Positions 45,001 to 48,000 of a DNA stretch of 64,000 nt are shown in pieces. The stretch is from Escherichia coli O157:H7 (GTDB taxonomy: Bacteria; Pseudomonadota; Gammaproteobacteria; Enterobacterales; Enterobacteriaceae). The stretch's first letter is position 1; every line of letters starts with the position of its first letter. Where the stretch lies: assembly GCF_013167455.1 (NCBI RefSeq), contig NZ_CP038328.1. One strand, given 5' to 3'. The position numbers are program-made.

Positions 45001-48000
45001 GAATTTGCCAATATGATCCGCGATCTCGATCAGGAGTGTGGTTCAACCTGCGCGGCGGATTTCCGCGATCGCTTAGGCGTAGGCCGAAAGCTGGCAATTC
45101 AGATTCTGGAATATTTTGACCGCATTGGCTTTACGCGTCGTCGTGGAAATGATCATTTATTGCGCGACGCATTATTATTTCCGGAAAAATAAGGAAATGA
45201 TTAATTAATTTTTAAAATAAATTAATACAAATTTCTTATGATTTTAAAAAAGCACATTGTTTAATGAATACAATGTGCTTTTTATTAGATTAATTTTGAT
45301 AATTAATAATAATGATCATGTTTTCGAATGAAAATCCTCAGTAAGCTGCCCACCCTTTTTTACACTTTCAGGAGTGTGTTATGGCATCTTCAACTTTCTT
45401 TATTCCTTCTGTGAATGTCATCGGCGCTGATTCATTGACTGATGCAATGAATATGATGGCAGATTATGGATTTACCCGTACCTTAATTGTCACTGACAGT
45501 ATGTTAACGAAATTAGGTATGGCGGGCGATGTGCAAAAAGCACTGGAAGAACGCAATATTTTTAGCGTTATTTATGATGGCACCCAACCTAACCCCACCA
45601 CGGAAAACGTCGCCGCAGGTTTGAAATTACTTAAAGAGAATAATTGCGATAGCGTGATCTCCTTAGGCGGTGGTTCTCCACACGACTGCGCAAAAGGTAT
45701 TGCGCTGGTGGCAGCCAATGGCGGCGATATTCGCGATTACGAAGGCGTTGACCGCTCTGCAAAACCGCAGCTGCCGATGATCGCCATCAATACCACGGCG
45801 GGTACGGCCTCTGAAATGACCCGTTTCTGCATCATCACTGACGAAGCGCGTCATATCAAAATGGCGATTGTTGATAAACATGTCACTCCGCTGCTTTCTG
45901 TCAATGACTCCTCTCTGATGATTGGTATGCCGAAGTCACTGACCGCCGCAACGGGTATGGATGCCTTAACGCACGCTATCGAAGCGTATGTTTCTATTGC
46001 CGCCACGCCGATCACTGACGCTTGTGCACTGAAAGCCGTGACCATGATTGCCGAAAACCTGCCGTTAGCCGTTGAAGATGGCAGTAATGCGAAAGCGCGT
46101 GAAGCAATGGCTTATGCCCAGTTCCTCGCCGGTATGGCGTTCAATAATGCTTCTCTGGGTTATGTTCATGCGATGGCGCACCAGCTGGGCGGTTTCTACA
46201 ACCTGCCACACGGTGTATGTAACGCCGTTCTGCTGCCGCATGTTCAGGTATTCAACAGCAAAGTCGCCGCTGCACGTCTGCGTGACTGTGCCGCTGCAAT
46301 GGGCGTGAACGTGACAGGTAAAAACGACGCGGAAGGTGCTGAAGCCTGCATTAACGCCATCCGTGAACTGGCGAAGAAAGTGGATATCCCGGCAGGCCTA
46401 CGCGACCTGAACGTGAAAGAAGAAGATTTCGCGGTTCTGGCGGCTAATGCCCTGAAAGATGCCTGTGGCTTTACTAACCCGATCCAGGCAACTCACGAAG
46501 AAATTGTGGCGATTTATCGCGCAGCGATGTAATCATCATTTCCACAACGGCTGGCAAATTGTCAGCCATTTTTTCAACTATCTCAAAACTTGCTTTTTTT
46601 GAGATAGTTTCTCTTTCCTGCTATACACTATCTCAATATTGCGCTTTTTTGAGATAAGCAAATGGCTATCAAATCACCTCCCACGCTGATTCCTTTATCA
46701 CACTTATCGGGTGAGGAACTCCAGGCCCACCTGCGCTTTAACCGGGTTACCGATGAAAAAGGACGTTATCTGCCTTTTGATGAGTTGCAGTACCGCATCA
46801 AAAAAGGAGAAAACGTCGATGTGGCGTGGACGCTTACCCGTCTGGCGCGCAACGCGGCGATCCAACGAATTAATTATTGCAATGAAGCGGGTGAACAGGC
46901 CGGATTCAACATTACCCCGGTGATTGCAGAAGCGTGCGAGCTTGTCGACAAACGTGCTACCGCGCTGGCGCTGAAAGATCAGACTGAACGGTTACGCGGG
47001 GCCGGAGCCGAGTTAAGCCAGTTACGCCTGGAAGAGCCGATCACCAGCTCCCAGCTGGAAGGTGCGAATACTACAACGCTGGTGGCGAGAAAAATGCTGG
47101 AAACAGGACGGTCGCCACGCACTGAAGACGAGCATATGATTGCGGGAAATGCCCGGCTGATGGCGGAAATTCCGCACTTACTCGCAGAACCGCTGACACC
47201 TGCGCTTATTCGCCAGTTACATGCCATTGGTATGGGTGGAATCAATGACGCGAAATATCGTCCGGGAGAATTTCGTGAAACAGATGATGTTGTGATCGCC
47301 GACTATGATGGCAATATAGTGCATCAACCGCCCGCTGCGGCATTGTTACCGGAACGGCTGGAAAAAGTTTGCCAGTGGTTAAACAGCCATGAAGGGTATA
47401 TTCATCCGTTGGTCCGTGCCTGCATTCTGCATTTTATGCTGGCCCATGAACATCCGTTTCGGGATGGCAACGGGCGCACCAGTCGGGCGCTGTTTTACTG
47501 GTATATGCTGAAATCGGGCTACGATGTCTTTAAATATATTTCCATCAGCCGTTTGCTTCATGCTGCACCGGTCAAATATGCCGCCAGCTACCAGTACACT
47601 GAATCAGATGGTATGGATCTGACTTATTTCCTTGAATATCAGGCGGGTGTCATTAAACGTGCTCTGCAAAACTGGCAGCAGCATATCGATGAAATTACAC
47701 AACGAAGCGCAAAACTCGATAGTGTGCTGTTTAGCTCTGGTGTGCTTAAACGCCTGAATCCGCGCCAGGTAACGCTCCTGAATGTGATGCTCGCCAATCC
47801 GGGGAAAGAGTACACAGTTGCTGAAATTAGCGCGAGCCTGGGCGTCTCTGATAATACGGTTCGAGCTGATTTACGGACAATTGTTAAAGAAGGGTTTGCG
47901 CAAGAGAAGAAAATTAATGACCAGCAAGCCGTGTACTTCGCGCATTATCCGCTGTAACCCTTGCCCGTAAATTCGTGATAGCCGTCGAAAAGCTGTTACC

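Follow-up and report, generated by a model that had tools for sequence, protein, structure and literature searches.

Over-production of this type of Fic enzyme is toxic, and a related family provides anti-phage defence from a single gene, which makes the way cells restrain Fic enzymes a live question. The question is raised by a locus of Escherichia coli O157:H7 (contig NZ_CP038328.1), where the 64-kb window, the whole stretch of DNA analysed here, carries a fic gene (46662–47957, + strand) that stands alone between yiaY and aldB, with no antitoxin gene encoding a DNA-binding domain next to it. Its product of 431 amino acids, for which RefSeq uses the same ATG and the name 'Fic family protein', is a class II Fic enzyme. 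The Pfam Fic domain covers residues 177–281 (E 1.7e-19), and the catalytic motif H264-P-F-R-D-G-N-G-R272 is invariant in the alignment and fits HPFx(D/E)GN(G/K)R. The inhibitory helix, S129-S-Q-L-E133-G134, precedes the Fic core, does not vary across 23 homologues and fits the class II pattern (S/T)xxxE(G/N). Towards the C-terminus there are weak Pfam matches to HTH_DeoR, HTH_11 and ArsR (residues 361–414, best E 8e-4), and the AlphaFold model (pLDDT 87.9) places three helices and a beta hairpin at residues 367–427. Full-length Foldseek matches are CbFic2, SoFic and CccR; as modelled, the protein has a class II Fic domain plus the winged helix-turn-helix (wHTH) fold of these three. The PADLOC SoFic profile PDLC03963 matches residues 96–428 (E 2.4e-43); because the protein misses the threshold of the NCBIfam SoFic equivalog NF046030 (39.9 bits against a cut-off of 550), we do not file it as SoFic proper.

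The original prediction described two copies of an inverted repeat ahead of fic, and the sequence matches that description. The yiaY stop at 46532 and the fic ATG at 46662 leave an intergenic gap of 129 bp, and both repeats lie within 86 bp of the fic start codon. The distal palindrome (46576–46609) is AACTATCTCAAAA-N8-TTTTGAGATAGTT, with perfect 13-nt arms and core 8-mers at 46579–46586 and 46599–46606. The proximal palindrome (46627–46656) is ACTATCTCAA-N-TTGAGATA, with perfect 8-nt arms (46629–46636 and 46649–46656) separated by a 12-nt spacer. Both share the core TATCTCAA-N12-TTGAGATA, and their 30-nt units, which start at 46577 and 46627 and are thus 50 bp apart, are 80% identical. The pattern TATCTCAA-N6..16-TTGAGATA has two matches in the window, both in the yiaY–fic gap, and none in 100 dinucleotide-preserving shuffles of the window: the tandem motif is far beyond chance there. 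The bare 8-mer occurs nine times in the window against 1.4 expected, four of the nine copies being palindrome arms.

Searched by blastn, the 90-bp palindrome region occupies one place per genome (median 1, maximum 2) and has no matches on plasmids, which argues that the palindromes are not a dispersed repeat family such as REP/BIME elements, MITEs or IS ends. Membership of an unrelated repeat family, the outcome that the original prediction had named as fatal to its operator reading, is thus not what we find, and the confinement of the motif to a single chromosomal place supports the reading. The distribution of the gene itself might suggest that the palindromes are the ends or recombination sites of a mobile element (a MITE, IS inverted repeats or attC-like sites) that brought fic into the yiaY–aldB gap. 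About 1,572 of 5,426 complete E. coli genomes (~29%) carry fic, O157:H7 and UTI89 included, and most of the others lack it at the same locus; the junction in fic-less genomes coincides precisely with the inner boundary of one palindrome arm (TATCTC|TGTAA); and in other genera fic is found in islands and in ICE-like or phage-like DNA. Against this origin, besides the single place per genome and the absence from plasmids, the two palindromes sit to one side of the gene with nothing resembling them downstream of fic, and no transposase or integrase adjoins. Moreover, K-12-type strains, which are without fic, keep 9 nt of the operator arm, so that their allele is a deletion product and not an empty target site: these strains have lost fic and have been left with half an operator as a scar. 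A mobile-element origin of the palindromes is therefore extremely improbable.

Beyond E. coli, these palindromes travel with fic: they stand ahead of its orthologues in many genera, with unrelated spacers, and since the neighbouring genes differ in every genus, fic is the sole gene inherited together with the sites. The distal site is kept with a different spacer in E. albertii, Pseudescherichia, Salmonella, Pantoea, Glaciecola, Alcanivorax and others; some orthologues have the proximal site only. The proximal site is the most widely conserved, with its core 23–34 nt ahead of the start codon in 19 loci, and its right arm ends 0–9 nt ahead of the start codon in all orthologous loci. In the E. 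coli and E. albertii sequences, all substitutions but one spare the arms, affecting the spacers and the stretch that separates the operators. Across 60 non-identical sites, positions that had played no part in selecting them are still conserved (TA 1.2–1.3 bits, AA 0.8 bits), whereas the spacer centre carries 0–0.4 bits. The autoregulator reading is thus supported by an arm, an N12 spacing and a position relative to the start codon that persist across genera while spacers and neighbour genes vary. In Pseudomonas, the orthologues depart from the simple N12 model: the distal site is degenerate, and the spacer of the proximal one, ACTCAA...TTGAGAC, is longer.

The linkage of the sites to fic is exclusive and holds in both directions. 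In the forward direction, TCTCAA-N12-TTGAGA (at most one mismatch) has 28 matches in 18 kb of fic-upstream DNA against three in 564 kb elsewhere in the same 19 loci. Alcanivorax has an additional site, at 1813 of locus L016, ahead of a HigA-like gene. In the reverse direction, the tandem motif predicts an adjacent fic, which again supports autoregulation: a fic homologue starts just after the motif in 46 of 50 metagenome loci, including lineages with 39–75% protein identity. Distant relatives, archaeal ones among them, keep the layout of two 8-N~12-8 palindromes with different half-sites, and tandem palindromes with the same arm occur in 23 of 60 of their fic-upstream windows against 14 of 2,376 control windows. 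The single palindrome has 15 matches in viral contigs, mostly AT-rich phage contigs and roughly at chance level, and none of the 15 has a fic homologue near it, which argues against a phage-borne target or decoy.

A rival reading is that the sites serve a different regulator, whose gene lies elsewhere in the host, and that Fic does not bind them. AT-rich palindromes are recognised by many regulators of E. coli, and the link from Fic to the sites is drawn by sequence comparison. To our knowledge, none of the consensus sequences of CRP, FNR, Fur, LexA, OxyR and IHF, compared informally, fits the 8-N12-8 site. The motif accompanies fic through unrelated genomic contexts and in hosts that range from Enterobacterales to Alcanivorax and Glaciecola, archaea having an analogous layout, and no neighbouring gene is conserved with it. 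Within a palindrome, 20 bp (about two helical turns, 68 Å) separate the half-site centres, a spacing unusual for ordinary small HTH dimers. Above all, the half-site shifts in step with the Fic protein. The predicted recognition helix, placed at residues 397–409 by the secondary structure of the model (S396-D-N398-T-V-R; codons 47850–47888, + strand), has S396, N398, T399 and A400 near-invariant among orthologues. In more distant relatives residue 398 changes together with the half-site: N goes with CTCAA, A or G with ATCAA, Q with xCTAA and D with ACCAA. Residue 398 predicts the half-site in 35 of 37 lineages, and none of 100,000 permutations reached this score, a count that overstates significance because the lineages in the co-variation table are not phylogenetically independent. 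This co-variation supports Fic as its own regulator, and together with the points above it makes an unrelated host regulator very unlikely. We propose that the predicted recognition helix is the reader of the TCTCAA half-site; one residue of it appears to set DNA specificity, and the recognition rule of the family, in which residue 398 pairs with the half-site from bacteria to archaea, appears to be simple and portable.

The position of the two candidate operators is consistent with control of a fic promoter. Upstream, the intrinsic terminator of yiaY (46549–46575, + strand; GGCTGGCAAATTGTCAGCC followed by a T-run), found by a terminator scan and folding as RNA at −12.6 kcal/mol (z −5.5), lies outside the operator and delimits the fic control region on its upstream side. 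In its right arm, the distal operator contains a putative −35 hexamer, TTGAGA (46599–46604, + strand; 5/6 against TTGACA), and 17 nt further on, between the operators, lies TATACA, preceded by TGC in the manner of an extended −10 element and overlapping TACACT (46619–46629, + strand). Locus L007 has the same arrangement. Orthologous loci have a TAnnnT-type hexamer at the equivalent place, often with TGn in front; the −10-like hexamers are TGCTATAAC in L007, TATACT in L086 and L091, TGCTATTGT in L012 and TGCTAATAT in L130. A promoter scan of the gap called no + strand promoter, which it missed because the −10 lacks the final T, and returned only TTGAGA-17-GACAAT on the − strand and two terminator-like hairpins; the −35/−10 assignment was therefore made by eye and from conservation. 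From the −10-like element, we infer that transcription starts at about 46633–46637. The sole Shine-Dalgarno-like sequence, GAGA (46651–46654, + strand), is 7 nt 5' of the ATG within the right arm of the proximal operator. TTGAGA would have a second role in each site, supplying the −35-like hexamer of the distal one and containing the weak ribosome-binding site of the proximal one, and the proximal operator would span both the predicted transcription start and the ribosome-binding site.

The same features can be read as nucleic-acid hairpins, with the distal palindrome acting as a second terminator or insulator against yiaY read-through and the proximal one as a leader hairpin that hides the ribosome-binding site. 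A lax scan flags the distal palindrome as a terminator-like element, its 13-bp stem (3 of the 13 pairs GC) being followed by TCTCTTTCCT, with 5 T in 8, and its RNA fold reaches −14.1 kcal/mol (z −6.8); the true yiaY terminator is directly upstream of it. It is also still present in about 503 E. coli genomes after fic loss, and the location of GAGA within the proximal right arm would suit a leader hairpin. However, the proximal fold is weak (−7.3 kcal/mol, z −2.6) and unflagged in the terminator scan, and the mRNA leader from the predicted transcription start has no significant structure (z 0.4), on which ground we also dropped a riboswitch- or thermometer-like leader. The stems are AT-rich and the loops 8–12 nt long. 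The conserved −10-like element sits between the palindromes, which would leave the distal one outside the fic mRNA. In many contexts the sites have no upstream gene, convergent or co-directional, to terminate. Hairpins would also account poorly for arms whose very sequence is kept across genera, beyond the ability to pair, for a constant N12 and for a half-site that co-varies with a protein helix. We consider a hairpin function unlikely.

Control by the protein's own wHTH domain has precedents: two related class II Fic-wHTH proteins, CccR and SoFic, bind their own promoters (PMC9755527; bioRxiv 10.64898/2026.07.09.737422), which is further support for the autoregulator reading. CccR (YPK_0951) of Yersinia pseudotuberculosis represses its own promoter via palindromes, as established by lacZ fusion, EMSA, DNase footprint and ITC; its sites in PcccR surround the −35 and −10, and a dimer is required for binding (PMC9755527). 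CccR likewise belongs to class II, with its inhibitory helix at the N-terminus and an HTH domain at the C-terminus, and is encoded by a single gene without antitoxin partner. However, it has 380 amino acids, whereas the protein here has 431 with an extra N-terminal region, and the two sequences are only distantly similar (phmmer E 1.4e-11 over the Fic core; 17–18% identity in Foldseek). The CccR operator is one pair of 10-bp arms 26 bp apart, AGATAATCAT-N26-ATGATAATCT, in contrast to the two palindromes here, 50 bp apart and each with 8-bp arms and 12 bp between them. CccR is also a T6SS-secreted effector, whereas nothing suggests secretion for the protein here. SoFic (SO_4266) of Shewanella oneidensis binds as a dimer, and specifically, to the 100 bp upstream of its own start codon (bioRxiv 10.64898/2026.07.09.737422). 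It shares domain plan and fold with the protein here (Foldseek TM 0.6–0.7), which is ~65 residues longer at the N-terminus. By our own reading of Table S2, the SoFic promoter fragment, in which the site has not been mapped, contains repeated ATGTCGAT/ATCGACAT 8-mers with 21–22 bp between inverted copies, and these differ from TCTCAA-N12-TTGAGA. The protein here belongs to a separate subfamily with an operator geometry unlike that of CccR and SoFic.

CbFic2 of Coxiella burnetii, the best Foldseek match (8cil), is again a class II Fic enzyme with a C-terminal wHTH. Its DNA binding goes with dimerisation and was assayed with generic 5–60 bp duplexes, not with a mapped operator; DNA switches its (de)AMPylation of histone H3, and control of its own transcription is not described (PMC10628234). 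We rejected an identification with the published EcSofic of E. coli H397, which differs in length and residue numbering (catalytic His 194 against 264). EcSofic has a downstream 47-aa antitoxin gene (PMC12249575), whereas the 107-bp fic–aldB gap here is too small for one and holds no AS1-like gene. The locus also resembles autoregulated type II toxin-antitoxin operators in its promoter-overlapping palindromes, its growth-inhibiting enzyme gene and its proposed negative feedback; there, however, the DNA-binding domain belongs to a separate antitoxin, whereas here one polypeptide comprises inhibitory helix, enzyme and DNA-binding domain.

Taken with these precedents, comparison supports the original prediction, in which a dimeric DNA-binding protein occupies the operator and the winged helix of Fic is the candidate autoregulator: the two palindromes are very probably tandem operators read by Fic itself, which would repress its own promoter through its C-terminal winged helix. 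A Fic dimer would set one winged-helix domain on each of the two TATCTCAA half-sites in a palindrome. Occupancy would block RNA polymerase, since the distal operator overlaps the −35-like hexamer and the proximal one, beginning just downstream of the −10-like element, extends over the predicted transcription start and the weak ribosome-binding site. Such negative autoregulation would be self-limiting and would hold a potentially toxic AMP-transferase low. We infer binding by Fic, its dimeric mode and the direction of repression from comparison, the binding and expression experiments at hand being those on relatives of this protein. A placement of both sites on one face of the DNA, considered because of the 50-bp spacing, was rejected: 49–51 bp correspond to 4.7–4.9 turns, not whole helical turns, and in distant relatives the spacing varies between 40 and 65 bp, so that cooperative same-face binding of two dimers cannot be assumed. 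By analogy with CbFic2, in which DNA binding governs dimerisation and (de)AMPylation, a Fic dimer parked on its promoter might also be a DNA-gated enzyme, held in one catalytic state and switching once something such as phage infection or DNA damage displaces it; we regard this as a speculative and rather doubtful extension.

Self-control has already been demonstrated for two related Fic enzymes, and here it would follow a layout and a helix/half-site rule that are met again from bacteria to archaea. The locus provides a precise candidate operator, TATCTCAA-N12-TTGAGATA present twice, for a Fic protein found in about 29% of complete E. coli genomes, with K-12 as a natural fic-null background that still carries an operator scar. 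The comparison also extends the observations on CccR and SoFic to a suggested family rule of tandem, widely spaced palindromes with promoter and ribosome-binding elements inside the operator arms. If true, DNA gating would link a defence toxin of the SoFic type to chromosome state, and the residue 398 rule, if true, could allow the operator of any family member to be predicted and re-engineered.

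The window is Escherichia coli chromosome, with selB (43348-45192), yiaY (45381-46532), a gene for a 431-aa Fic family protein (46662-47957) and aldB (48065-49603), followed by yiaW and yiaV. Of 5426 complete E. coli genomes, 1572 have the yiaY-fic-aldB order, O157:H7 strains and UTI89 among them, and K-12, C600 and BL21 are without fic. Two palindromes precede the fic start codon, a distal one at 46576-46609 (AACTATCTCAAAA-N8-TTTTGAGATAGTT) and a proximal one at 46627-46656 (ACTATCTCAA...TTGAGATA), and both contain TATCTCAA-N12-TTGAGATA, with unit starts 50 bp apart. Re-reading of the sequence confirmed the original prediction of paired inverted repeats about 50 bp apart before fic in every detail, and the pattern occurred in none of 100 shuffles of the window. 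A sensitive blastn search of the 5426 E. coli genomes with the 90-bp region as query matched one place per genome and no plasmid, which shows that the palindromes do not belong to a repeat family. Their single-copy state and the position of both sites on one side of fic also contradict the reading of the palindromes as a mobile-element end. The real yiaY terminator (46549-46575) lies directly upstream of the distal palindrome. Directed back into it on the minus strand (46586-46558) is a promoter-like TTGAGA-17-GACAAT, which arises when the distal left arm is read in reverse complement and is probably a by-product of the likeness of TTGAGA to the -35 hexamer.

Across genomes, the palindrome motif accompanies fic. 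Allowing at most one mismatch, TCTCAA-N12-TTGAGA has 28 matches in 18 kb of fic-upstream DNA versus 3 in 564 kb of remaining locus DNA. When metagenomes were scanned for the tandem motif, 50 loci came back; in 46 a fic homologue (39–99% identity) starts just downstream, and one of the four exceptions is interrupted by a contig end. Among viral contigs, the single palindrome was matched 15 times, never near fic. Both sites are intact in E. albertii, in which the distal-site spacer differs, and the Pseudescherichia fic (76% protein identity, other neighbours) has two sites 49 bp apart with unrelated spacers and a final arm ending 5 nt before the ATG, as in E. coli. One or two sites are found at fic of Salmonella, Pantoea, Photorhabdus, Kosakonia, Rahnella, Klebsiella and Pectobacterium, and also at 37–45%-identical orthologues in Glaciecola, Alcanivorax, Halopseudomonas and uncultured Gammaproteobacteria. 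The fic flanks are different in each case (autotransporter and ICE genes, hicAB, DUF927 primase, udp/rmuC, fumarase and others), and the range of hosts makes it unlikely that the sites are bound by a host regulator. Fic and operator lie within ICE-like DNA in Salmonella (L086 and L087, with AcaB, DUF3158 and DUF3577) and within phage- or satellite-like DNA in Klebsiella (L089 and L090, with a DUF927 primase and a tail-fibre-like gene), so the module is transferred horizontally as one self-contained unit.

The Alcanivorax fic promoter (L016) has three sites at 50-bp intervals, and a fourth, perfect-core site (ATCTCAA-N12-TTGAGAT, 1813-1836) about 1.1 kb upstream of fic precedes a HigA/XRE-type antitoxin-like ORF (1907-2245), which hints that the Fic regulator may target more than its own gene. 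At the end of a metagenome contig (L133, 1-150, reverse strand), at least three units, each ~49–50 nt long, follow one another head to tail, two with TATCTCAA-N12-TTGAGATA and the third with one base changed (TATCTGAA); the contig stops at this array. Two truncated fic pseudogenes (L112, ~2728-2911; L140, ~5147-5485) run for 37–55 codons before a stop, still have both operators intact and adjoin a FosA-like glutathione transferase gene, named by eye only. Five Pseudomonas loci (L013, L015, L017, L019 and L029) are off-layout: their distal site is degenerate (TTTCAG-N12-TTGAGT), and the proximal pair, ACTCAA...TTGAGAC, has a ~19-nt spacer that encloses a small internal hairpin. They share the recognition helix SYNTAS with the TCTCAA lineages.

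Within the sites, the conservation pattern matches that of a protein site. The consensus of 60 non-identical sites is TATCTCAAAA-N8-TTTTGAGATA; information at the six core positions is inflated by site selection, and positions outside the selection criterion are still informative (TA 1.2–1.3 bits, AA 0.8 bits; mid-spacer 0–0.4 bits). Where E. coli and E. albertii alleles differ, the substitutions lie within spacers or in the inter-operator stretch, with just one in an arm.

By aligned motifs (S129xxxE133G134 and H264PFRDGNGR), Fic is a class II enzyme, and it has a C-terminal winged helix (wHTH), as seen from weak Pfam HTH hits, an AlphaFold model (pLDDT 87.9) and Foldseek matches over the full length to CbFic2, SoFic and CccR. 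S396, N398, T399 and A400 of the predicted recognition helix are nearly invariant among orthologues sharing the TCTCAA half-site. Relatives at 30–40% identity from Proteobacteria, Verrucomicrobia, Planctomycetota and several archaea (L023-L075; archaeal loci L044, L065, L070, L073 and L075) keep the two-palindrome architecture just upstream of fic, with ~8-nt arms, 9–15-nt spacers and sites 40–65 bp apart, but have different half-sites (CTATCAA, CTACTAA, GTGCTAA, TCCTAA and CTACCAA). By a fixed automated criterion, the tandem layout is present in 23/60 fic-upstream windows versus 14/2376 same-locus and 5/191 AT-rich controls. Half-sites vary with residue 398 (E. coli numbering): N is paired with CTCAA in 12 lineages, A or G with ATCAA in 7, Q with xCTAA in 14 of 16 and D with ACCAA in 2. 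This rule holds in 35 of 37 lineages, a score reached in 0 of 100000 permutations, although the lineages are related and the pattern is co-evolution, not 37 independent trials. The co-variation is the strongest argument for the Fic wHTH as the putative reader of the palindromes. The palindromes may act as hairpins in a side role, given that the distal one is terminator-like, but this leaves unexplained the conserved sequence itself, the fixed N12 spacing and the co-variation with the protein helix.

We infer the fic promoter elements from their placement around the operators. A -10-like TGC-TATACA with an overlapping TACACT (46619-46629) lies between the two sites; TTGAGA in the distal right arm, 17 nt upstream of the TATACA element, matches the -35 consensus at 5/6 positions, and the proximal operator begins directly downstream of the -10-like element. 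GAGA in the proximal right arm, 7 nt before the ATG, is the sole Shine-Dalgarno-like sequence. Orthologous loci have a TAnnnT-type hexamer at the equivalent position, often with an upstream TGn; a promoter scan of the gap did not call the TTGAGA/TATACA promoter. With this layout, operator occupancy would repress fic transcription, and proximal-site-only lineages, which have a good -35/-10 pair upstream of the site and the start codon downstream of it, agree with such repression.

K-12-type genomes read CAACTATCTC joined to TGTAACCC and lack 46585-47952, keeping 9 nt of the distal left arm and then the fic stop codon onward (C600, L001 770-800). In a third allele, present in ~503 E. coli genomes, fic is deleted and a slightly degenerate distal palindrome (TATCTCAAAATTTGCGATTTTTGAGAGAG) is kept, followed by TTATCTC joined to TGTAA (L004 and L005, 2504-2556); in the same strains aldB is closely followed by a hicA-hicB pair. 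The retained operator scar, the third allele and the synteny of the E. albertii fic locus with E. coli indicate that the fic-less state is a deletion, with fic lost rather than never there. Slippage between the two TATCTC repeats could have turned the third allele into the K-12 form.

CccR of Yersinia pseudotuberculosis, with the same domain plan, is a repressor of its own promoter that acts through AGATAATCAT-N26-ATGATAATCT, and the HTH helices of its dimer are reported to be 70 Å apart (PMC9755527); by simple arithmetic, the half-site centres here, 20 bp apart, are separated by 68 Å. The SoFic dimer binds within the 100 bp that precede the start codon of its gene (bioRxiv 10.64898/2026.07.09.737422), and in our reading of Table S2 of that preprint the bound 300-bp fragment has five copies of the 8-mer ATGTCGAT/ATCGACAT, with two inverted pairs 21–22 bp apart and one 3 bp apart, which are candidate SoFic half-sites, unmapped in the preprint. 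In CbFic2, DNA binding drives dimerisation and enzyme activity (PMC10628234). The Fic protein here is a distinct subfamily, with ~65 more N-terminal residues and only 17–21% identity to the solved structures; it matched the PADLOC SoFic profile (E 2.4e-43) but failed the NCBIfam SoFic equivalog. It is not the published EcSofic.

The proposal of an operator for a dimeric DNA-binding protein, with Fic's own wHTH as candidate autoregulator, is thus supported by fic linkage, residue 398 co-variation and precedent. A self-regulated Fic of this kind is already known, and no description of this operator was found in the literature searched. What goes beyond that literature is a family-wide operator layout and an apparent one-residue specificity rule.
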